Origin: Candidatus Poribacteria bacterium
GTDB lineage: Bacteria > Poribacteria > WGA-4E > PCPOR2b
Length of the DNA stretch: 64,000 bases
Assembly: GCA_965215015.1 (NCBI GenBank)
Contig: OZ244042.1
Coordinates: 2,560,001-2,624,000, forward strand
Direction: 5' to 3'
The notes below the pieces were generated by a model. It was not told the origin of the DNA and made no database searches. It was given only the letters and a program-made list of their open reading frames with translations. This document shows positions 1,141 through 56,200 of this stretch, in pieces. A program made the translations under genes and the position numbers. The stretch's first letter is position 1; each line of letters begins with the position of its first letter.

Positions 1141-1168
1141 TTGCTTTTAATTTTCGCAGGTAAACTTG

Positions 1169-2083
1169 ATGTCCAACAAAGCAACCGCTCGTGTTCCAGC
1201 GAGCACAACAAACCTAGGACCGGGCTTTGATGTCCTTGGGTTAGCCCTACAACTTTATAGCACTATCTCGCTTGAAGATATTGACGAGGGGACGGAAATT
1301 GAGGTCACCGGCGTTGATGTGGATAAGCTCTCCAACAACGAGAGCAATATTGCTTACCGAGCCGCAAAATTGGTTTTCGACAAGTGTGGATATAAGCCGA
1401 CAGGTTTGCGATTGGTTCTAACAAATGGCATTCCCGCAATCCGGGGATTGGGAGGCAGTGGCACAGCAATACTCGGTGGATTGTTGACAGCCAATGCCTT
1501 ATGTGATGAACCGTTTTCTCGGTCTGAACTGCTCGATTTTGCCACAGAGTTTGAAGGGCATCCGGATAATGTTGCTGCATCACTGCTAGGTGGTTTGGTT
1601 ATATCTATGATGCGGGGTAACCACGTACATTCGATCCAATTGGATTGTGGTTCAGATCTGCGTGTTGTTGTGGCAATCCCCGACTTTTCGTTGTCCACCG
1701 AAGCAGCCCGTAGCGTTCTGCCCCAAACAGTTGATTTCGCTGATGCTATCCACAATGTGAGCCGTTCTTCGATGCTAGTGGCAGCAATTGCAACAGGCAA
1801 ATTAGACATGTTATCACTTGCCATGGCAGATCGACTCCATCAGCCGTATCGAACTTCTCTGATCCCCGGATTTGATGATGTGGCTGAATCCGCAATGCGT
1901 GCAGGAGCATTAAGTGTGGCTCTGAGTGGAGCGGGCCCCAGTGTTGCAGCTTACTGCACAACATCAACGGATGAGGTCGGTTCACAAATGAGTGAAGCGT
2001 TTGAGCGAAATCAGATTTCTTGCGACATCAAGGTGTTATCCATCGATTCCGCCGGCGCAACTGTGCAGATGAGCAAAATCTAA
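1169..2083 (+). CDS. thrB: Homoserine kinase
   Basis: VPASTTNLGPGFDVLG, GHMP loop IPAIRGLGGSG, EGHPDN, LSGAGP. Confidence 0.95.
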   Translation: MSNKATARVPASTTNLGPGFDVLGLALQLYSTISLEDIDEGTEIEVTGVDVDKLSNNESNIAYRAAKLVFDKCGYKPTGLRLVLTNGIPAIRGLGGSGTAILGGLLTANALCDEPFSRSELLDFATEFEGHPDNVAASLLGGLVISMMRGNHVHSIQLDCGSDLRVVVAIPDFSLSTEAARSVLPQTVDFADAIHNVSRSSMLVAAIATGKLDMLSLAMADRLHQPYRTSLIPGFDDVAESAMRAGALSVALSGAGPSVAAYCTTSTDEVGSQMSEAFERNQISCDIKVLSIDSAGATVQMSKI

Positions 2084-2200: not shown

Positions 2201-3499
2201 ATGATGAATACAGACACCGCAAAAATCTACACAAAGGGCGGCAGAGGCGGAAACGGCTGCATCAGTTTTCGTCGAGAAAAGTTTGTGCAGCGCGGCGGGC
2301 CGAATGGTGGCGACGGTGGGCAAGGTGGAAGTGTCATTTTAGAAGTTACGGAGGGGATGAGCACCCTCATCGATTTCCGATACAATCCTCATCAAGTTGC
2401 GGAGAATGGTCAACACGGCATGGGGAAACTGATGCACGGGGCGGATGCAGCAGATAGAATCGTCAAAGTCCCAGCGGGTACGATTGTGCGGGTGCCAGAG
2501 ACGGAGGAGGTCATTGCCGACCTGAAGGAGATAGGGCAGCGTGCAGTTGTCGCACGGGGTGGAATTGGTGGCAAAGGAAATGCACGTTTCAAGAGCAGCA
2601 CGTTTCAGACCCCACGTGTCGCTGAGAAGGGAGAACCGGGGGAAGAACGTACTATCGCGCTAGAGGTCAAGCTGATTGCAGACGTTGGCTTGGTCGGCTA
2701 TCCAAATGGAGGTAAATCGACGCTGCTCGCACGGACCTCCGCCGCAAAGCCGAAGATTGCGGACTACCCCTTTACAACACTGACTCCCAACTTAGGCGTT
2801 GTCCGAGTGGATCCTGAACACAACTTTGTGCTTGCAGATATTCCCGGTCTCATTGAGGGCGCACATGAAGGGGCAGGGCTGGGGCACGACTTTCTGCGGC
2901 ATATCGAGCGGACGAAGATGCTCCTCCACGTCATCGATACTGCTTCCATCGATGGACGCGACCCAATCACCGATTACGAACAGATCAACACAGAGCTCGA
3001 ACGGTACAACCCCCGCTTAACTCGCCTGCCACAGTTAATTGTCCTTAATAAAATGGACCTGCCCGATGCACAGACTAATTTGCAGCGCGTCAAAGATTAC
3101 TTCGGGAAACGGCGTGTCTTTCCGATCTCTGCGGTCACTGGTGAGGGAGTAGACCGGCTGATTAGAGCAACCTACCAACTTCTGCAGCGGATAAATGAAC
3201 GAATCCGTGAGAGACAAGAAGCCGTGGAGCCTCAACCAACCTTCCACATCCCCAAACCTAATGAACGATTTGAACTTATTGCGCGGAAAGATCGTTTTAT
3301 CGTGCGCGGCGAAGAACCGCGTCGCGCTGTTCTCATGACCGATATGGAAAATGATCAGGCATTGGTTCTCCTCCATCGGAAACTGAAAAAAATGGGCGTC
3401 CTGAATGCACTCATCAAAGCTGGTGTCACGGAAGGCGATACTGTTCAGGTTGATGCCTTCGAGTTTACGTTCAGTCCTGATGAAATCAACACACATTGA
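2201..3499 (+). CDS. obgE: GTPase Obg/CgtA with C-terminal OCT domain
   Basis: Gly-rich Obg fold (SFRREKF..GGPNGGDGG), G1 GYPNGGKST, YPFTT, DIPG, NKMD. Confidence 0.97.
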   Translation: MMNTDTAKIYTKGGRGGNGCISFRREKFVQRGGPNGGDGGQGGSVILEVTEGMSTLIDFRYNPHQVAENGQHGMGKLMHGADAADRIVKVPAGTIVRVPETEEVIADLKEIGQRAVVARGGIGGKGNARFKSSTFQTPRVAEKGEPGEERTIALEVKLIADVGLVGYPNGGKSTLLARTSAAKPKIADYPFTTLTPNLGVVRVDPEHNFVLADIPGLIEGAHEGAGLGHDFLRHIERTKMLLHVIDTASIDGRDPITDYEQINTELERYNPRLTRLPQLIVLNKMDLPDAQTNLQRVKDYFGKRRVFPISAVTGEGVDRLIRATYQLLQRINERIRERQEAVEPQPTFHIPKPNERFELIARKDRFIVRGEEPRRAVLMTDMENDQALVLLHRKLKKMGVLNALIKAGVTEGDTVQVDAFEFTFSPDEINTH

Positions 3500-14042: not shown

Positions 14043-15293
14043 TTATCCTGCTGTAATGACGAATTCTAGCCGGCGGTGCGCCTCCCGCAGGGAAGCTTCG
14101 ACACTTTCAGGAGTGTTGCCCCTTGCAAAGATAAATCCGAGATAACTCGCGCCTTCCGGCAAAGGGAGGACCTTCTGCCCAATCGGTATGCTGATGGTAA
14201 TCTCCTCGATTCCTGAGACCCGTTCTGCTTCTGTTTTGCCGCGTATTTCCCGCAAAATCCCGGCGCGAGGGATAGGAATCATCATTACGCCCGCGGGCTG
14301 TCGCTCACGCTGCAACGACTCAACTTCCATCCCGATAGCGTGGCGAATGATGAGTTCTTCCAACGAAATATCCGTTCCAAAGCGCAACGTCCGCGCACAA
14401 AGCCCACCAATTGACCGCGCAGCTATCTCGATTATCCATGCGCCATCGCCATTGACTCGCAGCTCCGCGTGGACGGGACCTTCCCGCAAACCGAGCGCGT
14501 CCGCTGTCTGTGCCGTGCAGGATATGATATCTTCTTGAACGCTGACCGGCAACCGGGAGGGGGTGATGTAGAGTGTTTCCTCAAAGAAGGGTCCGTCTAA
14601 CGGATCGGGTTTATCGAAAATAGCGAGCACCTTGAGATAGCCCTGAATTAGGATACCTTCAAGAGCCACCTCTATTCCCGGTATAAAATCTTCAACAAGA
14701 ATTTGCTGTGGTCTGGCATCTTTCCGCACTTTAACGTCAGGTGAGCCTAAAATACTAACAATTCTCTGAAACGCTTTCGCAAACTCCTCCGAATCATTCG
14801 CACGGATGACGCCTCGACTTGCCGAAAGAGAAAGAGGTTTGAGGACACACGGAAAGCCCATGCGCCTCGCGACTTCTGCCGGATCGGTGCTGATTGAAAC
14901 CAGCTCAAAGCGAGGTGAGGGAATGCCCGCCGCTGCAAGCACTTTCCGCATCTGATATTTGCTGCGGGTAGTGCGAGCAGATTCCACAGAATTATGCGGC
15001 AGAGACAACGCCTTCGCCGCCATTGAAACCAGAACTGTTGTGTCGTCATCAACGCCTACAATTGCGTCAATTGGATGGGTTTGGGCCAGTGCAACAATCG
15101 CCTCCGTTGCCTTCTCAGGTTTACTAAAGTTAATGACTAAGGACTTTCGAGGCGAAAACTCAGATAACGTTTGCGGTTGATCCGATCCAATCGCGACCGC
15201 TACACCTAACTGCGATGCAGCTGAGAGAAATGCCTCCGCGCGATATGTTTTGGTAGGCAATAGTAAGAGAATACATTTTTTAGTTGAGTTCAT
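14043..15293 (-). CDS. ATP-grasp domain protein
   Basis: FPCVLKPLSLSASRGV, VEDFIPG, FDKPDPLDGPFFEET, HAELR, EIAAR. Confidence 0.85.
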   Translation of the reverse strand: MNSTKKCILLLLPTKTYRAEAFLSAASQLGVAVAIGSDQPQTLSEFSPRKSLVINFSKPEKATEAIVALAQTHPIDAIVGVDDDTTVLVSMAAKALSLPHNSVESARTTRSKYQMRKVLAAAGIPSPRFELVSISTDPAEVARRMGFPCVLKPLSLSASRGVIRANDSEEFAKAFQRIVSILGSPDVKVRKDARPQQILVEDFIPGIEVALEGILIQGYLKVLAIFDKPDPLDGPFFEETLYITPSRLPVSVQEDIISCTAQTADALGLREGPVHAELRVNGDGAWIIEIAARSIGGLCARTLRFGTDISLEELIIRHAIGMEVESLQRERQPAGVMMIPIPRAGILREIRGKTEAERVSGIEEITISIPIGQKVLPLPEGASYLGFIFARGNTPESVEASLREAHRRLEFVITAG

Positions 15294-15554
15294 GAAATAT
15301 CTTCCAACTGAAAGTGCGTTTAGCAAATTATACAAAACTCGCCAATCTAAGGCAATTAGAAAAAGCAGGCAGAATGCAAATGCAATTGCAATTCCTTATG
15401 TTCTATGTTAAACTATAAAAGTTTTGAAAGAAGTTTAGAGAGTTCTTGAGAAACCACCAATATTGCGTTATCCACCAATGCTGATAAGTTGATAATGGTT
15501 TAGGTGTTGATAAGCACCTAAAACCCATATACCTAATTTTAAGGAGTAAAAAAA

Positions 15555-16385
15555 ATGATGTACCGAAAGTTTTTAGGCATTTTTGCCCTTATCACAACCA
15601 TCAGCATTTTGGCAGGGTGTGCACCAAAGCCGCAGATTGAAATTTATATGGAGCCTATTGCGGGCAGAGAACGAGCCCAAATTGACCCACAGACAGGCTC
15701 TGTCTCTGTGGAACAGCACGGCGTTCAGATTACGCTTGAACCACTCGATGAGGTAGATCTGTTTGAGCTCACGGAAGATGCGCGGATTAATCCGTACATC
15801 GGGATTGACCGTTGGGGCAACGTTGAGCCGCTGTATACCGTTTTCGGTGTTCACATAGAAAACAGAACCAATTCACGGGTCATCATTGATTCGACAGCAA
15901 TTTTAGTCGATCTAAACGGTGAGCAATATGCCGCCCTTCCCTATGATTACTTCAAAGAACTCTACGAGAACGTGAGACCACGAACAGTGGCATTCTACGA
16001 CGCTGGCTATCGATACCGTTATCCTTACCCACGTTCATACTATCGCAGCCCCTACCGTTATTATTACCACCACCCATATAACTATCGCTTAGGCTACCGG
16101 TATCATCGCCGCTCCCCTTACACACCGTATCGGGTGTACGATTACTATCTAGATCCAGATGTGATAAATCATGAACGGTTGGTTGCGCGTGATACCGTGT
16201 TCGATGGCGGTCAGCTTTTCTCAGGGGCGCAGCGTGAGGGACTCTTGGTCTTTGATAGGCTTGACATTGGTACGACGGATGTAAAGGTTATCTTGCCGGA
16301 AGTCCTGATTATCAATGAGGAGAAACAGCGATCAAAATCCGATTTCATTTTTGATTTTCGACAAGTTGTGAACGTAAAAGAATGA
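15555..16385 (+). CDS. Hypothetical lipoprotein with a Tyr/Arg-rich insert
   Basis: Lipobox ILAG-C; AAGGAG RBS; central low-complexity Y/R/P segment. Confidence 0.75.
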   Translation: MMYRKFLGIFALITTISILAGCAPKPQIEIYMEPIAGRERAQIDPQTGSVSVEQHGVQITLEPLDEVDLFELTEDARINPYIGIDRWGNVEPLYTVFGVHIENRTNSRVIIDSTAILVDLNGEQYAALPYDYFKELYENVRPRTVAFYDAGYRYRYPYPRSYYRSPYRYYYHHPYNYRLGYRYHRRSPYTPYRVYDYYLDPDVINHERLVARDTVFDGGQLFSGAQREGLLVFDRLDIGTTDVKVILPEVLIINEEKQRSKSDFIFDFRQVVNVKE

Positions 16386-16418
16386 AACCTTTGAAAGGTT
16401 ACACAGAGTCACTTAGAT

Positions 16419-16451
16419 TGCCAGCAATGAAATTCCGTTGCTGGCATTTTT
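16419..16451 (+). terminator. Intrinsic terminator
   Basis: TGCCAGCAA..TTGCTGGCA stem followed by TTTTT. Confidence 0.65.
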
Positions 16452-16497
16452 CTGTTTTGTAGCAGGGGATAAACCTAAGATAAAGAAAGGAGCAAAT

Positions 16498-18117
16498 ATG
16501 CAGATAAAAGTATCGTGGTTTTATAGTAAGGTGGGGGTGATTACCCTACTCCTAGCACTGCTAACCATTATATACGTAACATCCGCTTGGGCACAACAAA
16601 ACGAAGAACCTTCCGTTCTCCACAAAGTCAATGCACAGATTACGGCGGTTCTCTTTTTCGACATCGCCTTCGGTAGTATTCAGATTGATGAGGCCGATCG
16701 AGATGGAAATCCGGTGCTGGACGCATCCGATAATCCCAAGAAAAGGGTTATTCCTGTCCCCTTTCTGCTCGTTGTCCTAATTCTCGGCGCAATCTTTTTC
16801 ACCTTCTGGTATCGCTGGATTAACGTGCGAGGATTCAAGCACTCTATTGACATCATTCGCGGGAAGTATGACAACCCAGAGGATACCGGGGAAATTTCCC
16901 ATTTCCGTGCCTTGACAAGCGCGTTGTCCGCAACGGTCGGACTCGGAAACATTGCGGGGGTAGCAATTGCGATTCAGTTAGGTGGTCCAGGTGCCGTTTT
17001 TTGGATGCTTGTCGCAGCAGTGTTCGGGATGGCTGCAAAGTTCAGCAGCTGTACGCTATCCCAGATGTATCGGCAGACGAATGCAGATGGCAGCATTTCC
17101 GGCGGTCCTATGTACTACATTGATATCGGTTTGAGACAGATAGGAGGAGGCTGGGCACCTCTGGGGAAGGTGCTAGCGATCGTGTATGCGCTTATGATTA
17201 TGGGAGGTGCTGTCGGTGGGGGCAATATGTTTCAGGTAAATCAGACCGCCGAGGCGTTTCGGAGTACCTTCGGACTTTCGGAAGGAGCCAATTGGGTCAT
17301 TGGTATCGTAATAGCAATTTTGGTTGGGGTGGTAATTATTGGTGGAATTAAACGAATTGGCGCAGCAACTTCTAGAATTGTACCGATCATGTGTGGTTTA
17401 TATGTCTGCTTTTCGATTCTAATAATCTTGATTAACATTACCAGAATTCCTGAAGCTATCGGCCTCATCTGGCACATGGCTTTTACAGGCAATGCTTTCT
17501 ACGGCGGCTTTGTTGGCGTACTGGTGTGGGGTATCAAGCGTGCCTCTTTTTCCAACGAGGCAGGTCTGGGCAGTGCTGCTATCGCTCACGCAGCAGCAAA
17601 AACAGAAGAACCCGTTCGGGAAGGGCTCGTGGCAATGATTGGTCCCTTCATTGATACTATTATTGTATGTTCGATGACGGCACTGGTAGTTATCATTACG
17701 GGTACGTGGAACGATCCCAGCATCCCGCAGTCCGCTGGCGTTACATTGACGACAAAAGCATTTGAAAGTGCCATAAGCTGGTTTCCCGTAGTCCTTACCA
17801 TCAGTGTCGGACTGTTTGCCTATTCCACGATGATTTCTTGGGGTTACTACGGTGAACGGGGTTGGATCTATCTGATTGACCACTTCGGTGGCACCGGTCT
17901 AAAAACCGTTATTGTCTTCAGAGTTATTTTCGTCCTCTTTGTTCTCGTCGGTGCGGTTCATCCATTGAAGGCTGTCTTAGAGTTCTCGGATGTGATGATT
18001 CTCTGCATGGCTTTCCCGAACATCATTGGAAGCATTATCCTTGCACCAAGGGTACTGGAAAAAGTCAGGGACTATTGGAACCGTTACCAATCAGGTGAAA
18101 TGGAACCAGTTCGGTAA
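16498..18117 (+). CDS. Alanine/glycine:cation symporter (AGCS/AlsT family)
   Basis: ATVGLGNIAGVA, GGPGAVFWM, GGPMYY, FSNEAGLGSA, FIDTII. Confidence 0.93.
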   Translation: MQIKVSWFYSKVGVITLLLALLTIIYVTSAWAQQNEEPSVLHKVNAQITAVLFFDIAFGSIQIDEADRDGNPVLDASDNPKKRVIPVPFLLVVLILGAIFFTFWYRWINVRGFKHSIDIIRGKYDNPEDTGEISHFRALTSALSATVGLGNIAGVAIAIQLGGPGAVFWMLVAAVFGMAAKFSSCTLSQMYRQTNADGSISGGPMYYIDIGLRQIGGGWAPLGKVLAIVYALMIMGGAVGGGNMFQVNQTAEAFRSTFGLSEGANWVIGIVIAILVGVVIIGGIKRIGAATSRIVPIMCGLYVCFSILIILINITRIPEAIGLIWHMAFTGNAFYGGFVGVLVWGIKRASFSNEAGLGSAAIAHAAAKTEEPVREGLVAMIGPFIDTIIVCSMTALVVIITGTWNDPSIPQSAGVTLTTKAFESAISWFPVVLTISVGLFAYSTMISWGYYGERGWIYLIDHFGGTGLKTVIVFRVIFVLFVLVGAVHPLKAVLEFSDVMILCMAFPNIIGSIILAPRVLEKVRDYWNRYQSGEMEPVR

Positions 18118-21095: not shown

Positions 21096-23849
21096 CTAAC
21101 GTCTCCGGATGGTGAGGTTCAAGGGCAAAAACAGCAGCACAGCACAGAATGCAAGCATCCACTGCCACTCTTTGAACAAGGGAGCAAACCCGAATATTCG
21201 TTGCGTCGTTGGCAGGTAGACTATTGATAGATGCAACACAGTACATGCAAAAATGGTAAAGCATAAAGGAAGATTTGCCTTTATCCTTTGGAAGACAGAT
21301 TCCCAAAAGAGGCGATGGCATTGGAAGTTTGAGATTAACAACCCCAAAATCAACGTTGTACACGCTGCTGTTTGGGCTGCGGCCTGAAGGTGCTGATCCG
21401 TTCCAGTTGAACTCATAGATGTAAGAATAAAGCTAAAAATGGTCATTGACGCAATGACAAAGCTGCGCAGCAGCACATCGTAGAAATCGGCTCGTGATAG
21501 GAAGGGTGGAATCTTTTGAGGTTTGCTATACTTGAAATCGCCACGGATGCGATCATGGCCCAGACTCATCAGTGGTATCAGATTTACGAGCAGATGCACC
21601 CAGAATAGCTGAAGCAAACTCAAGGGCATGGGTAGGTCACGCAGCGGTGGGAAAAAGAAACCCATATACGGCAGCGCACTTCCAATAATAAGTGTGATAA
21701 GCTGTGCAAGGCTGCAGGACAGCAACCAGCGCATTGAACTTCTCAAGTTCATATAAGATTCCCGTACGTGATGTATGAGCCTTGAGATGACGTCAAAACC
21801 ATCTTTAAGCACTACACATGTTGCATGGTGTTGAACAATATGCGAAGAGCGAATAGCGGAGGCAAAACTGACGTCAGCCATTCGCATTGCTCGTAAGTCG
21901 AGAGGGGATTTCCCCCAAAATCCGACAGAATTGCCAAGCCGTTTTAGATGTTGCACCAGATTTTGTTTCTGTTCAATAGAAGGCCGGCAATATACAAGTA
22001 AGCGATTCACAATTGATTCATAGTGATCCTCACTGAACTCAGCCAATTCTTCCTGTGTAACAACACCGTGTTTGTCTTGAACAATAGCAAGTTCTTTGGC
22101 AATATCTAGAGCGGCGTTCCGGTCTCTATCTGTTATGGTGATAATCTTAAGTCCCGCGTCAAGACAGGATTGGATTATCTCCCTTGAATCTGGGTAATCT
22201 AGTTCTGTAAAACTGATAAAGCCCAAGAACGTCATGTTCTGCTGCGTTTCTTCTAGGGAGGGCCGAGTACTCAAGTTTCGATAAGCAATGGCAAGGGCTC
22301 GAGTTCTGCTGCTTGATAGGTATTCAATCGCCTGCTGCGTCAATTGCTTTTGATCAAAACTCATGTAATTGGCATTTCCATCAAGTTGAATGCGATGACA
22401 CGTTTGTATAACTGCCTCTGCATCTCCAAACATCAGCTTTAAGAACTTTCCATCTTGGAGTGCGAAAACAAGCGTTTTGTATGGATGTTCTGGGGTCTGA
22501 GGTTGTTCATCGATCTTAGTGAAAGCCTCATTGTAACGTTCCAAATCAAATCCAATTCTTTCGGCAATTTGGTTTAACGTGGCACCGATGCTCGCTTCTG
22601 CTATAGTCGAAGTTCTATCTAGGCTCTTCCGGCCGTTATCACTGGCACAACGGCTTGCGAGTAAGATCAGCAGTGGAAACTCGGATGGCACCTCCGAATC
22701 CGGCAGCGTGTTTGAAATTGTATCTCCGCCAATCTTATCTGATATGTGCTCACCAAGGGATTTGAGCCAATCTTCCCATGTCTGCTGATCCACGAGGCTT
22801 TCATCCACGAAAACATGTGAAACAGTCAGCTCCTCCTTCATAAAATTGCCGACTTCATTCACACAAACTGCTGTTAGTTTGCTCAGTCTCTCCAGATTAA
22901 CGAGATTACGAATTGCGACCCCCTTTTCCAAGAGTCTGTAAGCGTGTTGAGCCAAGATGGCTCGACTCGTTGAAGCAATCCCTTCAGGAATCGAAGCGAC
23001 GACAAAACCGAATCCGAGAAACAGAAGTTCACTCCAGTGGGTACTTTTGTCTTGAAGTAGCCACGCTACGGCCACCGCTGCCCCTCCCAGTATACCTCCA
23101 GCGATTCGGAAATAGTCGTAAAAGAAGCCCATCTGTACTTCCGCTTCGGCATCTAGGTCAACAATTGCAGGCGTGCGCTGATCGGATTGATTTATTCCCA
23201 ATTGATTGCCGCTCCCAACAACAATTGCCTGCGCTTCTCCTTCAAGGACATACGTTCCGGCAAAAATCATATTGCTCTGCTTTTCAGGGGGCAGGTCCGG
23301 TGTAGAAATTTCCTCATCAGTTTTCTGCGTGTAGGTTGTGGTTCCAAATACCGGGGCTTCATCAACAACCAGAGCGTCGGCCTCAACAATGCGGGCATCA
23401 GCGGCAATATAATCTCCTTCTTTCAGGAGTAACAGATCACCGGGAACAATTGCTGTAGGGGGAAGCTTGATAACATTCCCATCCCGAATAACGGATACAC
23501 TGACCTCTAAATGCGTTGTAATAGACTGCAGCTGATAGTGTGTTCTGCCAGCCTGAATGAATCGCCAGAGAATATGAAAACAGAGAATCGCCGAAAACAC
23601 CAAGATTTCGTGAATCGCACGTTGGAAATAGAGAAGTGCACAGATAACAACGAACAGGAGAATGACTGTTAAGTTGGAAAATTGCTTCAGTAAGAGAATG
23701 AACAGTGAACTTTCTTGAGATCGCAGCGTTTCGTTGCGACCATATTTGTTAGCTTGAGCGGCTGCTTCCTCGCTACTTAATCCGCGTTCAAGGTCTGTCC
23801 TGAATTCATGTAGAAGATGTGGAATTTTTTGGGTGTACCAATTTGACAT
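21096..23849 (-). CDS. Type IIA P-type ATPase homologue lacking catalytic motifs (pseudo-ATPase)
   Basis: GLSSEEA..YGRN, VIRDG, VPGD, ADAR, SIPEGI and a multi-TM layout are present; DKTGT is replaced by NEVGN. Confidence 0.85.
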   Translation of the reverse strand: MSNWYTQKIPHLLHEFRTDLERGLSSEEAAAQANKYGRNETLRSQESSLFILLLKQFSNLTVILLFVVICALLYFQRAIHEILVFSAILCFHILWRFIQAGRTHYQLQSITTHLEVSVSVIRDGNVIKLPPTAIVPGDLLLLKEGDYIAADARIVEADALVVDEAPVFGTTTYTQKTDEEISTPDLPPEKQSNMIFAGTYVLEGEAQAIVVGSGNQLGINQSDQRTPAIVDLDAEAEVQMGFFYDYFRIAGGILGGAAVAVAWLLQDKSTHWSELLFLGFGFVVASIPEGIASTSRAILAQHAYRLLEKGVAIRNLVNLERLSKLTAVCVNEVGNFMKEELTVSHVFVDESLVDQQTWEDWLKSLGEHISDKIGGDTISNTLPDSEVPSEFPLLILLASRCASDNGRKSLDRTSTIAEASIGATLNQIAERIGFDLERYNEAFTKIDEQPQTPEHPYKTLVFALQDGKFLKLMFGDAEAVIQTCHRIQLDGNANYMSFDQKQLTQQAIEYLSSSRTRALAIAYRNLSTRPSLEETQQNMTFLGFISFTELDYPDSREIIQSCLDAGLKIITITDRDRNAALDIAKELAIVQDKHGVVTQEELAEFSEDHYESIVNRLLVYCRPSIEQKQNLVQHLKRLGNSVGFWGKSPLDLRAMRMADVSFASAIRSSHIVQHHATCVVLKDGFDVISRLIHHVRESYMNLRSSMRWLLSCSLAQLITLIIGSALPYMGFFFPPLRDLPMPLSLLQLFWVHLLVNLIPLMSLGHDRIRGDFKYSKPQKIPPFLSRADFYDVLLRSFVIASMTIFSFILTSMSSTGTDQHLQAAAQTAACTTLILGLLISNFQCHRLFWESVFQRIKANLPLCFTIFACTVLHLSIVYLPTTQRIFGFAPLFKEWQWMLAFCAVLLFLPLNLTIRRR

Positions 23850-24000
23850 GGTTCAAAATTCTTGTCTGAAAACTGAGTAGGCGTAGAAACTGAAGATGTT
23901 GTTAAAAGGTTGGGATGACTCAAATAGAATCTATCCGATAACATCTGCCTCGTAGTAGGGGTTGAAATATATTTTACCATGTAATTGTATGTCTGAAAAC

Positions 24001-24030
24001 AAAAAAAGCCTCGTCTAATGACAAGGCTTT
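24001..24030 (-). terminator. Intrinsic terminator after rplU-rpmA
   Basis: Minus strand AAAGCCTTGTC-ATTA-GACGAGGCTTT followed by a T run. Confidence 0.7.
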
Positions 24031-24194: not shown

Positions 24195-24461
24195 CTAAAA
24201 ATCGGGACGTTCTGAGTAAACGCTAACTTTTCTGCGGAATTTATCCTTCCGCTCAAACCAGACATAACCATCAATTGTCGAGTAGAGCGTGTAATCGTTC
24301 CCAACCCCAACATTTTTTCCGGGGTGGATGTGTGTACCGCGCTGTCGGACCAGAATGCTTCCAGCGGTTACAGCACTCCCAGAAAACTGCTTGACGCCAA
24401 GCCGTTTACCGATACTATCTCGTCCATTGCTTGTACTTCCGCCGCCTTTTTTATGAGCCAT
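24195..24461 (-). CDS. rpmA: 50S ribosomal protein L27
   Basis: [31 protein letters not shown]. Confidence 0.97.
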
Positions 24462-24804
24462 TTTCGTTTTCCTCCTTAGCTGCGAGATTTTCGCCTCGTA
24501 TTTCAGTAATACGCAATCGGGTAAATTGCTGCCGGTGTCCCAATTTCCGCTTGTAGCCTTTGCGCCTTTTCGACTTGAAAACAACGATTTTTTTGCTCTT
24601 AGCTTGTTGCACAACTTCACCAATAACGGCGGCATTTTCGAGGTATGGTGTACCCACTTGTACATTGCCGCTACTATCGCCTATAGCCAATATTTCTGAT
24701 AGGGTTACCTCTTCACCGACAGGTGCATCTAACTTTTCAATGTCAATTAGCGTATCCACCTGCACACGATGCTGTTTCCCACCTGAGGCAAATACAGCAT
24801 ACAT
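24451..24804 (-). CDS. rplU: 50S ribosomal protein L21
   Basis: [31 protein letters not shown]. Confidence 0.97.
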
Positions 24805-27052: not shown

Positions 27053-28627
27053 TTAACTTTGTTCGCGCGGAGTCATTGTGACCACTGGTATAATCAATTC
27101 TCCCGTTGAGATACCTCCGTGTTGGAAACCACCTCGAAACTGGCGGGTATATTCATTGAATTGATTGGGGTAAACGAAGTAATAATCTTCTTTTGCGATA
27201 ATGTAGTTTTTGCTTGAGGTTTCAGCAGGTAATCTATACTGTCTCGGATTGTCGATATAAATGGCTTGATTCGTATCACACCCTAAATTTGCGCCAACTT
27301 TGAAACGGAGGCTTGTAGAGGTTTCGCGGTTCCCATACGCCCTTGATGGTCGATTACAGAGGACCGAACCGTGATCTGACGTGAGAACGATAGCGGCGTT
27401 CTGATTCGAGATAATCTTTAAGATTTTGAACAGTGCCGAGTGAGCGAACCAAGATTTCGTTAGGGATTGAAAGGCAGATTCATCCGGCGCAATCTGTTGA
27501 AGAATATCGGACTGCGAACGCTGATGCGTCAACATATCAATGAAATTAACGACCAAAGCAGATAGGCTGATCCGATCAAATGAAGATACTTGGCGTATAA
27601 ATTCATTGCCACCTTTGATATCGAAGATTTTAAAATACTTTAATCCGGGTTTAAGCTTGATTCCTGCACGTTGGATTTGGAGTTGGAGGAGGTGTCTTTC
27701 GTAACGGTTTGTGCTGGTTTCGTCCGCAGCGTCCTCCTGCCAGTACTGTGGAAATCTTTCTGCAATCTCTTGTGGAAACAGACCACTAAAAATCGCATTG
27801 CGTGAGTAGAGTGTTGCGCTCGGTAAAATTGAAAAGTAGTAATCCCTATCAATATAGAAGTAGGGTTGGAGCAAGGATTCGATTGCTATCCAGTGATCCA
27901 GTCGTAGACAATCAACGACAATCAAATACACCTGGCGTTCTTGGCGCAGATGCGGGATAACAAATTTATCGACAACATCAACAGACAAGGGCGGTGAATC
28001 CTCACCTTGTAACCAGCCGAGATAGTTTTCCTGCACATAATCGGAAAATAGAGCATTACACTCTTTTTTCTGCTCTAAATGGGTTTCTTCAAGCCCTGTT
28101 TGGGCCAAGCAATCAAACTCAAAATCCCATTGGAGCAATTTCAGATAGATTTCTATCCATTGCCGCCAGTCTGGGCCTGCGTCCTTACTGGCGCGGATCT
28201 GATTAAAATCGTGGGTATAGTTGCGTGGCACCTGTGCTTCGATGATTTTGGTCTGATCCAGTACACGCTTCAAGGTTGAAGCAATCTGAGCAACGCCAAT
28301 GGGTTTCACCAAAAAGTCGCTAATCCGTTTGCCTAGTGCCTCATTGATTAACCGGTCCTCACTGCCTTGCGTGACCATAATTACTGGCAAGATAGGATTA
28401 ATTTCACGGATTCGATCAAGCGTTGTCATACCATCTTGCCCGGGCATAACCTGATCAAGCAAGACGGCATCATAATAAGATTCTTTGAGTAGCGAGATAG
28501 CATCGGTCCCATTGGAAACCGGTGTGATATCGTAAGATTTTTCGCGGAGCAGAAGAATGTGGGGTTTCAGTGCATCGATTTCATCATCAACCCATAGAAT
28601 TTTACGCGTTGTGGCTTGTGCTAACAC
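27053..28627 (-). CDS. PorX-like response regulator (REC + PglZ/alkaline-phosphatase domain)
   Basis: ILWVDDE, LLDQVMPG, VDCLRLD, ILPSATLYSRN, NFIDMLTH, TSDHG, FQHGG. Confidence 0.9.
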   Translation of the reverse strand: MLAQATTRKILWVDDEIDALKPHILLLREKSYDITPVSNGTDAISLLKESYYDAVLLDQVMPGQDGMTTLDRIREINPILPVIMVTQGSEDRLINEALGKRISDFLVKPIGVAQIASTLKRVLDQTKIIEAQVPRNYTHDFNQIRASKDAGPDWRQWIEIYLKLLQWDFEFDCLAQTGLEETHLEQKKECNALFSDYVQENYLGWLQGEDSPPLSVDVVDKFVIPHLRQERQVYLIVVDCLRLDHWIAIESLLQPYFYIDRDYYFSILPSATLYSRNAIFSGLFPQEIAERFPQYWQEDAADETSTNRYERHLLQLQIQRAGIKLKPGLKYFKIFDIKGGNEFIRQVSSFDRISLSALVVNFIDMLTHQRSQSDILQQIAPDESAFQSLTKSWFAHSALFKILKIISNQNAAIVLTSDHGSVLCNRPSRAYGNRETSTSLRFKVGANLGCDTNQAIYIDNPRQYRLPAETSSKNYIIAKEDYYFVYPNQFNEYTRQFRGGFQHGGISTGELIIPVVTMTPREQS

Positions 28628-28705
28628 TTTGTCCCCTTTTCTTTTTCCCCTTAAATTTCACCCGGAATAAATTATAAGTAGATTTTTTCTCAGCATCTTT
28701 GATGC

Positions 28706-30187
28706 TTACCTACTTCCAACTGTTTTTAGGGGTAATACAATCTCAAAGGTTGTACCCTGTGAGCTTGTCTCAATGAGTCGAATCTGTCCATGATGATACG
28801 CTTCAATGATTCGTTTAACAAGCGTCAAACCAAGTCCCCATCCATGTTTCTTCGTTGTCATCCCCGGATGAAAGATTTTATTACGGTTTTTCCGGGAAAC
28901 TCCTTTTCCGTTATCTTTGTATACAATGACAATCTGATGCCCCCTCGGATGGAGCCGTGGGTCGATTTGGATGATACCATTTTCCTTATCTATTGCATCA
29001 AGTGAATTCCGGATCAGGTTTTCAAAAACCCACTGTAGTAAATCCGCATTCGCTACAATTTCGGGAAGTTCGCGGTTAACCACGCGCAATTCAACCTGTT
29101 TACTTAGATTGGGCAAACGCTTTTGAAAATAGGCGACAGCATCTCTGATAACTGAGTTAATGTTGACGCAGGTTTGCTGTGGGTACGAACCAATCTTGCC
29201 AAAACGTTCTGTAATACGCTGGAGTCGAGCGAGATCGCTCTGCATATTTGCATAAATTTCGGAAGTTGTATTGGCTCCCTTCTGCTTGTCCAATTCCATC
29301 AATAGCTCGACCCACCCCATCAACGAGGAGATCGGTGTCCCGAGTTGATGCGCGGTCTCTTTCGCAAGTCCACCCCAGATCGACGCCTGTTCAAAGGTTT
29401 TAATTCGGCGATAGCTCAAAAAGCTAACAATCAAGATGCTCGAGAACACAGCGACCAATACGATGGGCATAATGAAGATGCCATAGTCGGGGATTACCTC
29501 GTAGTACAGATAGCCCTGAAGGGGACCGGGGTTGGTTTGCAGTAGAGCGTACCGCCCCACGGCTTTGGAATTTTGAACGAACCTCTTGGCTCTTTCGTAT
29601 TGCTCTGGCGTGGCGGTCTTTGCTGTGAGCAATTCAGTCCAGATTTTCCACTGCTGCGGATTATGCTCTAAATCCGTCATGGCAAAGGGCAGTCGATCTA
29701 TTGCATTTGCGTCCGCCTCGCCATGATGGAAATACCCATCAATCAGGAAATCATGGAGCGGTTTTGGGGTTTCGTCCTGCTTCATCCGATTGAGAATTTT
29801 ATTGAGTTTTAATGTCTCAGCATCAGAGAGCAGCATGCTATCATTGATTTTGTTTTCAATCGTCTTATCGCTGAGGTTTTTAGCCTTTTGGGCTTGACCG
29901 TCGGCATCCGTGATGATGAATGATAGCCGGCTTTCATTGAACAACTTCTCCTTAGTAATCTGGCTCAACTGATCTTGAAGTTGTCCATCTTTGATACCTC
30001 CAAGTAAAGCTGCAAGGTCCGCCAACGGTTCGACTTGCTTCTCGAAAACTTTAGTGCGTTGGAGAAGCAGGTGGGTGTAATACACGAAGGCAAGCGAAAG
30101 GATCAGCAGCCCAACAATGAAACAGGTAAGCAAGAAATTGGAGGCAGCGTAGCCGGTAGGTACAGTCCTCTGACGTTTGAAAAACAT
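28706..30187 (-). CDS. Membrane sensor histidine kinase
   Basis: Two TM segments, AKETAHQLGTP H-box, ENLIRNSLDA, DNGKG, GWGLGL. Confidence 0.92.
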   Translation of the reverse strand: MFFKRQRTVPTGYAASNFLLTCFIVGLLILSLAFVYYTHLLLQRTKVFEKQVEPLADLAALLGGIKDGQLQDQLSQITKEKLFNESRLSFIITDADGQAQKAKNLSDKTIENKINDSMLLSDAETLKLNKILNRMKQDETPKPLHDFLIDGYFHHGEADANAIDRLPFAMTDLEHNPQQWKIWTELLTAKTATPEQYERAKRFVQNSKAVGRYALLQTNPGPLQGYLYYEVIPDYGIFIMPIVLVAVFSSILIVSFLSYRRIKTFEQASIWGGLAKETAHQLGTPISSLMGWVELLMELDKQKGANTTSEIYANMQSDLARLQRITERFGKIGSYPQQTCVNINSVIRDAVAYFQKRLPNLSKQVELRVVNRELPEIVANADLLQWVFENLIRNSLDAIDKENGIIQIDPRLHPRGHQIVIVYKDNGKGVSRKNRNKIFHPGMTTKKHGWGLGLTLVKRIIEAYHHGQIRLIETSSQGTTFEIVLPLKTVGSR

Positions 30188-30304
30188 CTGTGTGCCCCAA
30201 TCAAGCACGGCAAAGACTTATGCACGCACGAAATATTTGATACTATTGTATCAGAAAACATACTCTAAAGTCAAGTACTCGTTTGGGGCATTCCAAAAAC
30301 AAGC

Positions 30305-39243: not shown

Positions 39244-42200
39244 CTACTTCAGAATCAGCATCTTACGGGTTGCAGAGAAGTCTCCTGCACTCAGGCTGTA
39301 GAAGTAGATGCCACTGGCTACCTGTTCACCGAAACGGTTTCGGCCGTCCCAGTAGATGGCTTTGGCTCTCGACTCATACACCGCCGCTGTCTGATGCCCC
39401 ATATCGAGGGTTCGCACCACGAGACCGGTGCTATCGTAGATGGTCAAGACGACCTCCGCATCTGATGCCAACCGATACGGTATCCACGTTTCGGGGTTGA
39501 ACGGATTGGGATAGTTCCGAAGTAGCTCCGTCTCTGACGGAATCTCATAGGCGATGAGGTCTGCCAACTCAATCCGAGTGGCTTTCACATCGTCAATGGT
39601 AACGATATGACGCACCGGCTGGACACCGATTAACGGACTCGGTGAATCTGCCGAAATCTCCAGCACATCCCCAACCTGTGCCGCATGACCCACCTTCAGG
39701 TCAACAAAGGTCATGTTGTAACCTGTTGTTGTCTCTGCGGAGGTCACCCGGTTGAGTGCGGCTTTGGTGGACAGGTTCTTCACCTTGACCCGGAATCCGT
39801 CCTGCACCACTCCGGTGGTCTCATCAACGACCGAACCGTTGACATCAAGGACGGGGGTTTGACCGGCAACCTGATGGCTAACCAACGCGATAGGTGCAGC
39901 CGCCGCAGTGTCGTGGCTCCAACCGGTTCCGATAAGTGCAGCGGTTGCATCGGTGGTCGCTGTGACTAGATAGGCAGCATCCCCCATGACCGGTCCATCA
40001 TTTACATCCTCGGCCAGTCCATCATTTATATCTGCTGCCGCTGCAACGGACCTGTATCCATCCGCCGTTGAAACAACGAGACTGATGACAACGCCGCGAG
40101 CAAATAGCGAGGCAATGTCGCTGACATTGGTCACTCTCGCATCGTTAACGGGTAGACCGATGAGGTTAGAACCGGCTGTTAGATTGATGGTTGATGCGCC
40201 GTCGTCCCATGCATACCCGGTGAAAGTCACCGTCGCTTCAGCACTCATGGAAAGGAGGATACCCAGGTCTGCGGTAATCGGTACATCGTCGCTGCGACTA
40301 TTCCATAAATCGGTCGCCCTATCATAGACAATGAGCAGATTGGCGTTGCTGCCAAGCATCTCGCGGAGGTCGCCTACCGTGTCGAGCCCCTCAACTGCCA
40401 ACGGGACGTGGAACAGACTGATCCCTGCCGGTATCTGCGAGGTATAGGACAGTTTGTTATCCAACGTAACCATCGCCGTGCCGCTGCCGCTGTTGCCTGC
40501 GGCGTCGATCGCGGTTATGGTGATGGTTTTGGCCCCGTTGAGGGCTGTGTTAGCTTCACTGACAACGACTGAGGCACTATACGAACCATCGGCCCCCATC
40601 GTCAGAGCGACCGCATCGGTTTGGGTGGTATCTAACATGGAGACATCCGCCATCACGGAGGTGATGCTGCTCGCGTCGGAGACGGTCGCAGAGATTTCCA
40701 CCGACTCACCGTCGGCAACGGTCTCAGGAGACGCCATCGCCATCACGGTCGGCATCGTGCTGTCAAGTGTCAACGCATTGGACACCATCACACTTTGACC
40801 ATTCAGACTGACAGACACATCATACATACCATCGGGGTGCTGAACGACATCGGCGTGCTGATCAGCCACGACGGTAAACGACCCACTGTAGGCACCGCTC
40901 GATACTTCTGCCATCGAGTGGTCGGTGACAATCGACCCGACGGAGAACATCACGGTTCGACCGGCTGTGCCCATCGCACTGACGGTGACCGTATCCCCCG
41001 CCCTCGCGAGTGCAGGTTCAATCGTGACGCTGCCTTCGGTAATGGCTACCACAGAGGTGGTGACCGTGACCGGATGGCTCGCCATCGTCAGACCGGGTGC
41101 TGTCGCGGTAATCGTTGCCATCCCGGGTGTCGCATCTTGATAGTAGACCATCGCTGAGACCTCGCCGCCTGCAACGGTTACGGTGATGCTCTCGGTTCCC
41201 GTCCCCTCAGCGAGCTCAGAGAACGTGCCTGCGGAGCTGGAGGTCAGGGTGACCGACACATCGGACCCCATCGCTACCTCATGCCCCTCGGCATCTCTCA
41301 ATCCGACGGTGATACCTAACGGCATCGCCCCCTCGTCGGCAGAAACCGTGCCGGCACTGCTCAGTGTGAGTTGGCTCGGCGTCGAATCTTGGACGCGCAC
41401 CGACACGTTGGAAGCTACCTGTCGACCATCAAACAGCATGGCGAATTGAGAGACCTCACGGTTGGCAGGGGCGTCGGCATTTTGGTAGGTGAAGATAATT
41501 TCATCACCCGCTTCGACCTCAAGCCCACCTAATTTCACACGCGCCACCATGTCTCGACCGACCGGTGTCAGTTTCTCGACACTCACCGTCGTCGCAACCC
41601 CCATATGCCGGTGCACCACGGTGTAGGTTCCCTTATTTTCAGGGTCCATCGCCGCACTGCTCGGTGTAGTCCAACCGGGGGGCACCTGCACCCGGAATTC
41701 CCGTGGCGCGTTGACGCGGCCGACAGCAGTGTAGGTAAAGGTCAGGTTCACCCCTGTCGCCCCGGCGTCTACAATCCGCGGTGCGACCTCACCCGAACCG
41801 GCACCCTGTCTCGCCTCCTCGACGTCGACGGTCAGCATCGTCTCATCGCCGGAGACAGGGTCAAACCTATCGGCTGCATCGCCCCCGTGCACTCCAACCG
41901 CAAAGGCGACATCGGTGTCCACGTTGGGCTGCACATCACCGGTATAGACAAAGGTCACCGTCCCGTTGGCACTCAAGTTGACGCCTTCGACGATAGCCAT
42001 TTGACCACTAAAGGTGGGGGGGATTGCGGGTGTAATTTCCACCGTATCCGCCGTCGGTGCAGACCAACCGGCGGGGACCTCGAGCCGCACCTTGCCACCG
42101 ACCATTTGACCGGCTGCCGTGTAGGTGACGGTCAGCTCCCTGCCGGTATCACCGGTATGAAGCGACCCCTCCCCATCGGTCACGGCAATGACGGCTTTGC

Positions 42201-53219: not shown

Positions 53220-56200
53220 GTGCGTAATATCAAACCGATTCTTGGGCTAACCTTCTTTTTTTCATGTGCGTGTGGTATCATCTACGAAGTCATCTGGGCA
53301 CGCCAGCTAACTCTGTTTTTCGGCAGTCTAGTGTTTGCTGTGAGCACACTGCTAAGTGCATTCGTAAGCGGGTTGGGACTCGGCAGCTTTTACTTCGGGC
53401 GGTTGGCAGGCAAAGAAAAGCGACCATTGCGCCTGTATGCCTTTCTCGGAGTGGGACTCGGAATCTTTGCACTCATCTTCCCGACCCTATTAGATATTCT
53501 CAACGCTCTCTGTATCCTCATCTATCGTGGACTGGGTGCGGGGTTCTATCTCCTGTCGTGGATTCGGTTTGTCCTGTCATTTGCTGTCCTGCTGATTCCA
53601 TCAACGCTGATGGGCGGCATACTTCCCCTTCTCAGTCAGCTCGCCCAAGAACGGTGTGCAGGATTCAAAGCGAGTCGTCTTTTCACCATTAATATGCTTG
53701 CTGCAAGCCTCGGTTGTATCGCTATCGGGTTCTTCCTGATTCAGCTTCTAGGTGTTCAGCATTCAGTCTATTTGGGTGTAGCGATTAATTTGATTCTGGG
53801 AGTTGTTGCTTTCGGTTTAGACCGTTCTTGGTCTGACACCTCTTTAGACATGCAGCAGGACTTAGACAACGGATTGGAAATATCCCCAAAAGGGGCAATA
53901 TGGCAACTATTGTTATGGACATTCGCTGTTGCGGGCTTCTGCGTGATGGCTTATGCTGTCCTGTGGACACGGATTCTGACCTCCTTTCTCGGCAACACAA
54001 ATTATGCTTTCTCGGTTATGCTGACTGCCTTACTGCTCGGCATTGCGGTTGGAAGTTTTCTATTTGAAGTAATCGTGCGGCGGGTTAAACTGTTTGTCAA
54101 TCTTTTCGGATTGATTCAGATTGGAATAGGCCTGTCCGCTGTTACGCTAATACCACCTTTCGGAAATCTATATGAGATCAGCAGAGAGTTGCAAGCTGCC
54201 TTTGGGGTTGGACGTTTTTGGGAATTTGTTGCAGGGTTTATCCTGATAATTGTTCCCACAATCCTGATAGGAGCTAGTTTTCCGTTGGTTATGCGGATTT
54301 GTGCCGCTGTCAAATCACAATCCGCAGCTTATCCATTCAGCACAATCGGTGCATTTCTTGGATCACTGTGTACAGGGTTTGTCCTGATTCCACTGATTGG
54401 GATACGTCCAAGCCTTCTCTTAATCTGCGTGTTGAGTGCGGTTATGGGGTGTGCACTAATTCTTCTGAATTCCGAAAAATCACAGATTTTCAGCGGCACC
54501 GCGATTGGTGGCACAATCTTGACCGTTGGAGTGGGACTGATGGTGTTACTGTGGGGGAGCTCACCTCTTTTTTTGAAAAGCGGCACCTTTTGGACGCAAC
54601 GCGTAAACGATACACTAGTCGGACATACCGAAACTGTTGATGCGAACATGGTCACATTTATGGATGATCAAGGTATCCATCGGCTGTATGTTGACAATGA
54701 CGAGATCGCCGATGCTTCTCGCCGGGGATCTGTGTCACATCGGATTATCGCCCATCTGCCGCTGTTGTTGCATCCAAACCCTGAACGCGGGCTTGTCCTC
54801 GGATTTGGGGTGGGAATCTCGTCCCATACCATGACGCAGCACGACGTGCATGTGGACGCCGTCGAAAATCCAGAGGGGCTCATCGAAGCGGCGCGGCAAC
54901 ACTTTACTGATGTAAACCGTAACGTCCTCGACAGCTCGACGCTCAATCATAGGTTCAATGATGAACGAAGCTATGTGTTGATGACACCAAAGCGATACGA
55001 TGTAATTTCCATAGGTGCCTTCCACCCGCTTGTGAGTTCAAAGGGTTCTAATCTTTACACCACAGATTTCTATAGATGGTGTAAGCGTATCCTCACAGAA
55101 GATGGTATAATATGTCGATGGATACCGCTCAAGCGGCTGCCGGGAACACATCTCAAAATGATTGTAAGGACCTTCATTGAGGTGTTTCCAAACGCGACAA
55201 TATGGTATAAATACACACCGGACTTTGCCATCCTGATTGGCACGCCAGGGCGGTTCAAGATAAATTATAAGCGTTTTATGGAGCGGGCGCAGGGTCCAAG
55301 GGTTCACCAAGCCCTCGCAGCTGATGACCTTGATGGTATGTCGCTACTCGATTCATTCATGATGGGCGAGAAGGTTGTCCGAGCGTATGTCGGTGATGGT
55401 CCAATCCATACAGACAATCACCCACATTTGGAATTCTTCCATCCCCGTGCACTTGTGAATACAAACCACAAAAACATTGAAGGGTTGATGAAATACCGTG
55501 AACGCGTCACACCCTATTTAGCGAACTACGGTCGCACGATGAACGCCAAAATTGAGGTGCGAAAGCGGATTGATCTCTACTTTGATGCCACACAGAAGTT
55601 AATCGAAGGACAGATTGAATATGCCAAAGGACAATATGAGAAGGCTGTTGGTGTATTGAATCAGGCTGTAGCCCTTAACCCAGACGATTATACGATTCGG
55701 TACAATCTTGGGGCTGCGGTAGAGTTAGCAAACAGGGTTTATCAACAGGAGCTCAAGCAGACCGAAAGGGTCCTCAAACAAGCACTACAGAGCAATCCAC
55801 GGGATGTCCAAAAACAGATCGAACTAGGTATCACCTATGAACTTCAGGGGGAATTGGCAAAGTCAGCGGACGCCTTTGAAGAAGCACTTAAATATGAACC
55901 GAGTCGCCTAGAGCTTTATTCGTTGCTCGGCCCGATTTATGAACGTCAAGAACGGTACGATGAGGCGTTGCACACGTACCAGCGGCTTGAGAAATTAGAA
56001 CCGAATCTCCCCGCTATCATTTTTGGTGCAATGGCATCGATTTATCATTTTCATAAGAAAATGCTTCCTGATGCCCTCAAATACGCGCAGAAGGCGTTGG
56101 CAGTCGATCCCAATTCTTGGCGTGTGCATAACCTGTTAGGGGTTATCTATACGGATAAGAAAGAATTTAGACAAGCCGTTGATGCGTTCAAAGCTGCGAT

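Follow-up and report, generated by a model that had tools for sequence, protein, structure and literature searches.

The 64,000-nucleotide stretch analysed here (the window: positions 2,560,001 to 2,624,000 of contig OZ244042.1, assembly GCA_965215015.1, from a Candidatus Poribacteria bacterium) encodes a P-type ATPase homologue that appears to have discarded the chemistry of a pump while keeping its body. To judge from alignment with its relatives, this protein, the pseudo-pump, retains their four-domain, 10-helix build without the residues for ATP binding, aspartyl-phosphate formation, Mg2+ and Ca2+ coordination, and dephosphorylation. Its gene is a single-copy, near-universal core gene of Poribacteria and is under purifying selection in every domain. 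We infer that the pseudo-pump is unable to run the E1P/E2P (Post-Albers) cycle and works without ATP hydrolysis. What is such a protein kept for? We give about even weight to the view that it is an anciently inactivated, selectively maintained descendant of a P2A-type Ca2+ pump with an ATP-independent role in the membrane, in which the cytoplasmic headpiece is coupled to a membrane pocket.

The gene is an unbroken frame of 917 codons on the minus strand (21096-23849), and the plus-strand reading of the same span is rich in stops. A sequence-only reading of the window had described a full-length type II P-type ATPase at this place with its invariant motifs replaced. The open reading frame is present, on the minus strand, with the full type II P-type ATPase architecture. 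The Pfam domains are Cation_ATPase_N (residues 4-69), E1-E2_ATPase (116-307) and Cation_ATPase_C (740-908), with no HAD/Hydrolase match at E<=0.01. The closest solved relatives by sequence are human SPCA1 (8iww, E 1.2e-57 by HMMER) and Listeria LMCA1. The best NCBIfam model is that of the PMR1-type P2A Ca2+-ATPases (TIGR01522), at 244.3 bits and below its cut-off of 798.3 bits; the sole NCBIfam cut-off passed belongs to the generic P-type model TIGR01494 (79.2 against 62.3 bits). The Pfam domains, TIGR01494 and a Foldseek probability of 1.00 to P2 pumps place the protein in the P-type ATPase superfamily as a fold and homology group. The TIGR01522 score and the ligands of Ca2+ site II set it outside the P2A Ca2+-ATPases of PMR1/LMCA1 type, and DKTGT, TGES, the nucleotide-binding residues of the N (nucleotide) domain, and HAD motifs II-IV, set it outside the catalytically competent P-type ATPases. 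We therefore regard the pseudo-pump as P2A-type by descent (LMCA1/SPCA/PMR1-like), as its sequence indicates, and not to be filed as a Ca2+-ATPase, because every defining catalytic feature examined fails. Its look-alikes in the ESM Atlas are generic P-type ATPase clusters only.

Motif columns were set by three kinds of alignment: HMMER against SPCA1 (8iww), a 91-member family profile against LMCA1, and MAFFT with canonical P2 ATPases. The first pairs CSDKTGT with CVNEVGN, TGET with FGTT, KGA with FGD, TGD with TDR and GDGVND with GKSPLD, and the LMCA1 profile and MAFFT return the same columns. The replacements listed in the sequence-only reading (CVNEVGN, FGTT, FGDAE, TDR and GKSPLD) were right in every motif across all three. 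Related loci were the best 79 of 338 stretches encoding a relative in a species-representative genome collection; their source titles read Candidatus or uncultured Poribacteria in 74 cases and 'uncultured bacterium' metagenome-assembled genomes in five. The family set used for the tallies below (n=78) consists of the window protein and 77 of these loci, excluding a fragment (L025) and a locus dropped by the motif filter (L026).

Within this set, the Thr of the TGES loop in the actuator (A) domain is replaced by Phe (F168) in 77/78 members, and the column of its Glu holds T, S, G, M or R. The Lys of KGAPE has become Phe in 65/78, with the columns of the conserved N-domain Phe and Arg variable, and the Gly of TGD has become acidic (Asp or Glu) in 76/78. 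The first Asp of GDGVND is Q, K or R across the family, and the last (D651) is invariant (78/78), making up with T/S573 and K/R628 the HAD remnants that the family keeps. How much of the canonical pattern survives overall? Of 108 positions conserved at >=90% in a comparison set of 132 canonical P2 ATPases from a representative search, the family retains 39, has another residue fixed at six and varies at 63. Those kept are mostly residues of the fold (PGD, ADxR, K176, N193, several Gly, the Pro of transmembrane helix (TM) 4 and the last Asp of GDGVND). The six changed and fixed are T168F, L236A, K332E, K474F, A643G and P653R, and among the now-variable ones are columns of ATP-binding and Mg2+-binding residues, with the N-domain Phe, Lys and Arg, the DPPR motif, and two residues of GDGVND (its first Asp and its Asn).

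The old phosphorylation position calls for a separate account. That the phosphorylatable Asp is gone, as the sequence-only reading had it, holds for the window protein and a few near relatives, which carry Asn, and not for the family, in which the position is D in 56 sequences, N in 20, and S and H in one each (Asp or Asn in 76/78). Orthologues with Asp carry it in the context D-E-[VIKN]-G-x; the Lys that should follow it is absent family-wide, as is the full Lys-Thr-Gly-Thr. Asp and Asn codons here differ by single transitions (GAT/GAC versus AAT/AAC), and the family tree calls for at least 10 changes of state. Phosphorylation is therefore not what selection preserves, and a phosphorylatable Asp is evidently not required. 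The sequence-only reading had also named two observations that would count against it, a canonical DKTGT in close relatives and an Asp at the structural site of phosphorylation. All close relatives among the 78 family sequences lack DKTGT at this locus, and in both AlphaFold models of the window protein the residue that ends the first beta strand (E327-331) of the phosphorylation (P) domain, at the place of the HAD nucleophile, is N331.

In the membrane domain, MAFFT alignment with canonical pumps bears out the earlier statement that the TM5 and TM6 ion ligands are changed with the TM4 PEG kept; across the family, the TM4 Glu is kept in 26/78 members. The canonical Asn of TM5 is T or S in 68/78, and the canonical Glu is Q in 67 and L in 11. 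In TM6, the canonical Asn is H in 35, Q in 42 and Y in one, and the canonical Asp is T in 40, N in 28, S in nine and G in one. The acidic TM5 and TM6 ligands of the old Ca2+ site are thus gone and its polarity is retained (Q716 in 67/78, H/Q752 in 77/78, N/T/S756 in 77/78). New conserved features have also appeared. Forty-one positions reach >=95% conservation in the family without doing so in canonical pumps; TM5-10 hold 16 of these. Where TM7 begins, D791 and R795 join residues of the TM8-TM9 loop in a charged cluster without counterpart in canonical pumps; five of its members (D791, R795, R846, E850 and R855) are common to deep-branching relatives and lacking in canonical pumps. This cluster, on the cytoplasmic face of TM7 and the TM8-TM9 loop, is the likeliest candidate for a new functional surface.

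The frame is intact in 78/79 loci, the 79th being a 1.5-kb contig; one further locus is cut by a contig end. The ratio of nonsynonymous to synonymous substitution rates (dN/dS) of the window gene against 20 near orthologues is 0.086-0.169, and the median over 163 pairs (19 sequences of a genus-level clade, dS 0.2-1.5) is 0.114. Five flanking genes at the same loci give 0.032-0.135, and the pseudo-pump lies within that range. By domain, dN/dS is 0.146 in the N-terminal A segment, 0.112 in TM1-2, 0.109 in the A domain, 0.105 in TM3-4, 0.064 (the lowest) in the P segment around the old phosphorylation site, 0.141 in the N domain, 0.099 in the second P segment and 0.093 in TM5-10. Lineages bearing Asn at the old site, such as that of the window, show no raised dN/dS. 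Orthologues thus share the degenerate motifs at a dN/dS far below one, as had been put forward for checking, and the shared substitutions, the purifying selection and the lack of any DKTGT relative support the earlier proposal of selection for a non-pumping role.

How widespread is the pseudo-pump, and how old? A profile search (E<=1e-30) of 176 genomes of the Poribacteria phylum finds a match in 175, spanning all 31 genera and 11 families, and in all 133 of high quality (>=90% complete, <=5% contaminated); the only genome without one (G071) is 81% complete. Genomes of the main order (G018-G175) hold one match each, except G029 and G158, with more than one, and G071. The complete genome of the window holds two P-type ATPases, the pseudo-pump and a CopA-type P1B pump of 847 amino acids ~2 Mb away (L080 589-3132, G000:C1), and a search of that complete genome found no other P2-type ATPase. 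The CopA-type pump has two HMA metal-binding domains and serves as an in-genome control, with CPC, TGES, DKTGT and GDGIND intact. Among public sequence sets listed as carrying the pseudo-pump gene none is RNA; the four listed, all of one study, consist of contigs of unknown kind.

Nine deep-branching genomes of other families or classes (G001, G002, G005, G007, G008, G011, G014, G016 and G017; loci L082-L090) carry intact, differently degenerate homologues. Their versions of the phosphorylation loop read CSNKKGI, CVEREWG, CVELESS, LADETSN, CFDP[RQK]GV and CVEHTGG, and two of the nine genomes also have canonical DKTGT pumps. The motifs seem, on this comparison, to have drifted independently in each lineage after inactivation; the most widely shared derived state is the acidic residue for the Gly of TGD (position 574), which looks like the first of the shared changes. 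Scores in the representative search leave a gap, with core clusters at 1100-1420 bits, divergent pseudo-pump clusters at 610-680 and canonical pumps at <=470. One divergent cluster (P0151, named 'cation-transporting P-type ATPase [Candidatus Poribacteria bacterium]' by its source) falls inside the canonical range at 431.5 bits. A maximum-likelihood tree of 50 rows (IQ-TREE quick search, LG+G4, unrooted, several rows having odd composition) places the 21 canonical rows in one clade with a Shimodaira-Hasegawa-like approximate likelihood ratio (SH-aLRT) support of 100; therefore, all 29 pseudo-pump rows fall on the other side of a single branch. Such a topology fits one ancient loss of activity, and selection has maintained the gene since early in the phylum's history. 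The poribacterial clade is marked by F168, E332, G334, D651, W272, W358, R707-W708, D791, R795, R846, W849 and R855, by single copy and by a length of 900-960 amino acids; the window protein carries all of the marker residues and sits inside the clade with SH-aLRT 100.

AlphaFold was run with 20 aligned sequences and again with 91. The first model has a predicted local distance difference test (pLDDT) score of 81.2 and a predicted template modelling (pTM) score of 0.71, its other four models lying at 59-69; the second has pLDDT 84.7 and pTM 0.79, with all five models at 81.6-84.7. Both show a P2 pump fold of 10 TM helices with TM4 broken at the Pro, and for both Foldseek puts P2 pumps first (probability 1.00). 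TM-scores of the first and second model are 0.73 and 0.78 to sarcolipin-bound SERCA (4h1w), 0.70 and 0.74 to the E1.Mg2+ form (3w5b), and 0.69 and 0.74 to SPCA1 in CaE1 (8iwp; that of the second model is also given as 0.74/0.76). Scores to E2 and E2P states are lower, at 0.48-0.62. The comparison with solved pumps that the sequence-only reading had suggested thus recovers the P2 fold in predicted form, nearest to open E1-type states, and hints faintly that the resting state may be E1-like and open to the cytoplasm.

How might these features fit together? The pseudo-pump would be a conformational membrane device for which ATP hydrolysis is not needed. Its conserved cytoplasmic headpiece would act as a module that binds a ligand or partner and would be coupled to a polar, uncharged intramembrane pocket (E289, S713, Q716, H752 and N756), the outcome being regulated passive translocation or transmembrane sensing. 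The protein itself probably fills the old phosphate pocket, with the side chains of E332, D574 and K647 and those of the retained K628 and D651, and the new charged surface of TM7 and the TM8-TM9 loop would be a part of the machine that is needed. Of the four roles named in the sequence-only reading, sensor, channel and scaffold stay as candidates and regulator of an active ATPase is disfavoured.

Several observations weigh against this picture. The E1-like conformation is an AlphaFold prediction and may reflect training-set bias, and the self-filled pocket is conjectural. Such a pocket could have left covariation between residues 331 and 647: the raw table is suggestive, pairing D331 with K/R647 in 35/56 sequences and N331 with K/R647 in 1/20, and the association is a mere hint, not significant when phylogenetically independent pairs are counted (four the same way, none against, three uninformative; p 0.125). 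The Asp found in 56/78 orthologues makes, with T/S573, K/R628 and D651, a partial HAD-like site, and residual binding of phosphate or metal may persist in those orthologues. The polar residues at the old ion site, finally, could just satisfy each other structurally.

The main alternative is purely structural: the pseudo-pump would be an inert anchor or scaffold, its body surviving only as a rigid platform in the membrane for recruiting other proteins, by way of the charged cluster of TM7 and TM8-9 for instance, with nothing sensed or passing across. We hold it possible and rather unlikely. In its favour, the Arg, Trp and Asp residues specific to the family lie on the cytoplasmic side of the membrane, the acidic ion ligands are lost, and both models adopt a single E1-like shape. 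Yet constraint and polarity persist in all three cytoplasmic domains and at the old ion-site positions, beyond what a platform would need, and the compared neighbourhoods hold no partner gene conserved across the family; the widely linked genes are housekeeping ones (thrB, the aminotransferase and the Ycf48-like protein).

Three further alternatives, in falling order of likelihood, are residual chemistry in the Asp-bearing orthologues, regulation of CopA and decay into a pseudogene. Could the family still be catalytic in a non-canonical way, its Asp-bearing orthologues being phosphorylated or working at an altered site as phosphatases or ATPases, and the Asn of the window be a recent loss? The 56/78 Asp count, the retained T/S573, K/R628 and D651, the lowest dN/dS (0.064) around the site and the TIGR01494 match would fit such an enzyme. 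We nevertheless find it improbable: the site changes state at least 10 times, and dN/dS is not raised where Asn has taken over; the Mg ligand, DKTGT's Lys and Thr, the TGES motif and the N-domain residues that bind ATP are missing in all core members; and the absence of a HAD match in Pfam speaks the same way. That the pseudo-pump assists or regulates an active P-type ATPase, one of the roles proposed in the sequence-only reading, is very unlikely. The general argument for it is that pseudoenzymes frequently regulate active paralogues. Against it, the only other P-type ATPase of the genome is the distant CopA-type P1B pump, G029 and G158 are the only genomes of the main order with more than one P2-type match, and conserved neighbourhoods contain no pump gene. 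Finally, a decaying pseudogene or annotation artefact, for which the loss of all catalytic motifs might speak, is refuted by the intact frames, the low dN/dS (~0.11), the phylum-wide single-copy distribution and the 41 newly fixed family-specific positions, and we give it practically no credence.

Table 1. Positions in the window of the pseudo-pump gene, its altered motifs and nearby elements. Residue numbers are those of the window protein.
Feature	Position	Strand	Remarks
Pseudo-pump coding sequence (P0001)	21096..23849	minus	917 amino acids; P2A-type P-type ATPase homologue; A, P and N domains; 10 predicted TM helices
Former phosphorylation loop CVNEVGN (canonical CSDKTGT)	22845..22865	minus	residues 329-335; N331 (codon AAT) at the Asp position; E332 for Lys
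Former A-domain TGES loop PVFGTT	23337..23354	minus	residues 166-171; F168 for Thr; catalytic Glu lost
Former N-domain KGAPE, now MFGDAE	22416..22433	minus	residues 473-478; ATP-binding Lys replaced by Phe
Former TGD motif TITDRDR	22119..22139	minus	residues 571-577; Thr kept, Gly now acidic, Asp lost
Former GDGVND motif FWGKSPLD	21897..21920	minus	residues 644-651; first Asp (Mg ligand) is K here
TM4 IPEGI	22977..22991	minus	residues 287-291; Pro and helix break kept; Glu kept here
TM5 SCSLAQL (canonical SCNLAEI)	21699..21719	minus	residues 711-717; Asn to Ser, Glu to Gln here
TM6 VHLLVNL (canonical VNLVTD)	21579..21599	minus	residues 751-757; Asn to His, Asp to Asn here
Cytoplasmic TM8-TM9 loop QCHRLFWESVFQRIKAN	21273..21323	minus	residues 843-859; conserved Q843, R846, W849, E850, R855
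Terminator-like hairpin and T-run	24005..24030	minus	downstream of rpmA (L27), upstream of the pseudo-pump; consensus match only
Sigma-70-like promoter match TTTTCA-17-TAAAAT with TG	23971..23999	minus	~120 nt upstream of the ATG; consensus match only
Aspartate-type aminotransferase	1-1140	plus	cut by the window start; ancestral upstream neighbour of the pseudo-pump
thrB (homoserine kinase)	1166..2083	plus	ancestral immediate upstream neighbour; here 19 kb from the pseudo-pump, opposite strand
obg	2201-3499		after thrB in the window

The genes around the pseudo-pump (Table 1) have an older arrangement elsewhere in the phylum. At 56/79 loci, the order on one strand is a Ycf48-like BNR protein (55 loci), an aspartate-type class I/II aminotransferase, thrB (279 bits against the TIGR00191 cut-off of 168) and then the pseudo-pump, the gap after thrB having a median of 90 nt (range 1-568, 55 loci). 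Among these loci is L016, whose protein is 70% identical to that of the window, and thrB also lies immediately upstream at five of the nine deep-branching loci. A genus-specific rearrangement separates the two genes in the window: the pseudo-pump there stands behind RNase E/G-rplU-rpmA and is convergent with a DgaE-like pyridoxal-phosphate enzyme. Because the same constraint persists after loss of the thrB context, co-transcription with thrB is not essential. The depth of the thrB synteny is the sole contextual lead to function that the compared sequences offer. It underlies a narrower version of the favoured reading, in which an ATP-independent, ligand-gated conduit or sensor, held E1-like by its permanently self-occupied phosphate pocket, would be tied to aspartate-family amino-acid metabolism because the pseudo-pump sat directly behind the aminotransferase-thrB pair for most of the history of the phylum. 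Taken as a whole, this version is unlikely. Should it hold, a primary active transporter took on a new task early in phylum history, as a membrane machine of a different kind, and its gene joined the core set.

The rearrangement is real and is not a simple one-inversion event. A single 22-kb inversion would restore the adjacency of thrB with the pseudo-pump and of rpmA with obg; the L21 or L27 gene lies within 1.5 kb of obg in 0/5 other Poribacteria genomes, and the window lacks the genes that follow the pseudo-pump in L016 and L018. A two-component link was likewise rejected: a HAMP-HisKA-HATPase histidine kinase and an ECF sigma factor stand just downstream of the pseudo-pump at 11 loci of one subclade (L023, L027, L028, L030-L035, L038 and L061) and not family-wide. 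Another subclade, of 33 loci, has a DUF6785/DUF6784 membrane protein convergent with the pseudo-pump.

Other features of the window deserve mention in their own right. The rpmA open reading frame (24195-24804, minus) encodes 156 amino acids with the L27 domain at residues 70-149 only, and its 5' part overlaps the rplU (L21) frame (24451-24804); either L27 really begins further downstream or the protein is unusually extended at its N-terminus here. A histidine kinase gene followed by one for a response regulator with a PglZ output domain (27053-30208, minus) is conserved beside RNase E/G in the genus, the regulator at 92-94% identity. An ATP-grasp L-amino-acid-ligase-like gene (14043-15335, minus) lies near a sodium:alanine symporter gene (16438-18117, plus), with an unassigned 276-residue open reading frame between them (14043-18117 in all). 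At 39244-46203 (minus), an open reading frame of 2319 residues, whose domain matches are all weak (BslA-like and NPCBM-associated at ~1355-1395, FlgD-Ig at the C-terminus), probably encodes a giant surface protein, and the protein of 1053 residues encoded at 53220-56381 (plus) has a spermine/spermidine-synthase domain at 506-667 and, C-terminally, a long TPR array.

Why does a dead pump matter? Few membrane enzymes are understood as well as P-type ATPases, whose signature motifs count as invariant; this family has discarded the chemistry and, spread over 31 genera and 11 families, must have kept the machine for very long. As the sole P2-type homologue remaining in most of these genomes, the pseudo-pump offers an experiment of nature on the uses of a pump scaffold without ATP, and it is a core gene of sponge symbionts that are uncultured and form a dominant group. 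Annotation should take warning too, since sources label these proteins 'Ca2+-transporting ATPase' or 'cation-transporting P-type ATPase', which would wrongly credit Poribacteria with a calcium pump. In the open literature, with subscription papers and supplements outside the search, neither a dead P-type ATPase from bacteria nor this Poribacteria family was found described.

Among known systems, the P2A Ca2+/Mn2+-ATPases (LMCA1, 6zhf and 9euq; SPCA1, 8iww and 8iwp; and the PMR1 type) resemble the pseudo-pump in domain order, in having 10 TM helices and the Pro break of TM4, and in the core residues of the A domain. LMCA1, SPCA1 and PMR1 have DKTGT, TGES, KGAPE, TGD, GDGVND and the TM5/TM6 Ca2+ ligands, whereas all of these are replaced in the window protein. 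In overall shape, the models come nearest to SERCA1a in its E1.Mg2+ and its sarcolipin- or phospholamban-bound states (4h1w, 3w5b, 4kyt and 4y3u), with a predicted open headpiece and a site facing the cytoplasm. In SERCA, the open E1 form is a transient state of an ATP-driven cycle; in the pseudo-pump, which is not phosphorylatable, it is a prediction only, at an identity of 18-19%. Further afield, SUR and CFTR are transporter-derived ABC proteins that do not transport, reusing a pump fold as a regulator or as a gated passive pathway, and both still bind nucleotide. The likeness would be one of mechanism only, as these belong to a different superfamily and the pseudo-pump has lost the residues that align with nucleotide-binding ones. 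The nearest published precedent that we found is the flippase module of the alveolate P4-ATPase-guanylate cyclase fusions, which in some lineages is without the Asp of DKTGT and the Glu of DGET; its authors raise the loss of ATPase activity (PMC13466520). The two cases are alike in keeping a P-type body despite an altered phospho-Asp and dephosphorylating Glu. The alveolate modules are eukaryotic and cyclase-fused, with a lineage-specific loss, whereas the pseudo-pump is bacterial, P2A-derived and stand-alone, with its loss placed near the base of a phylum.

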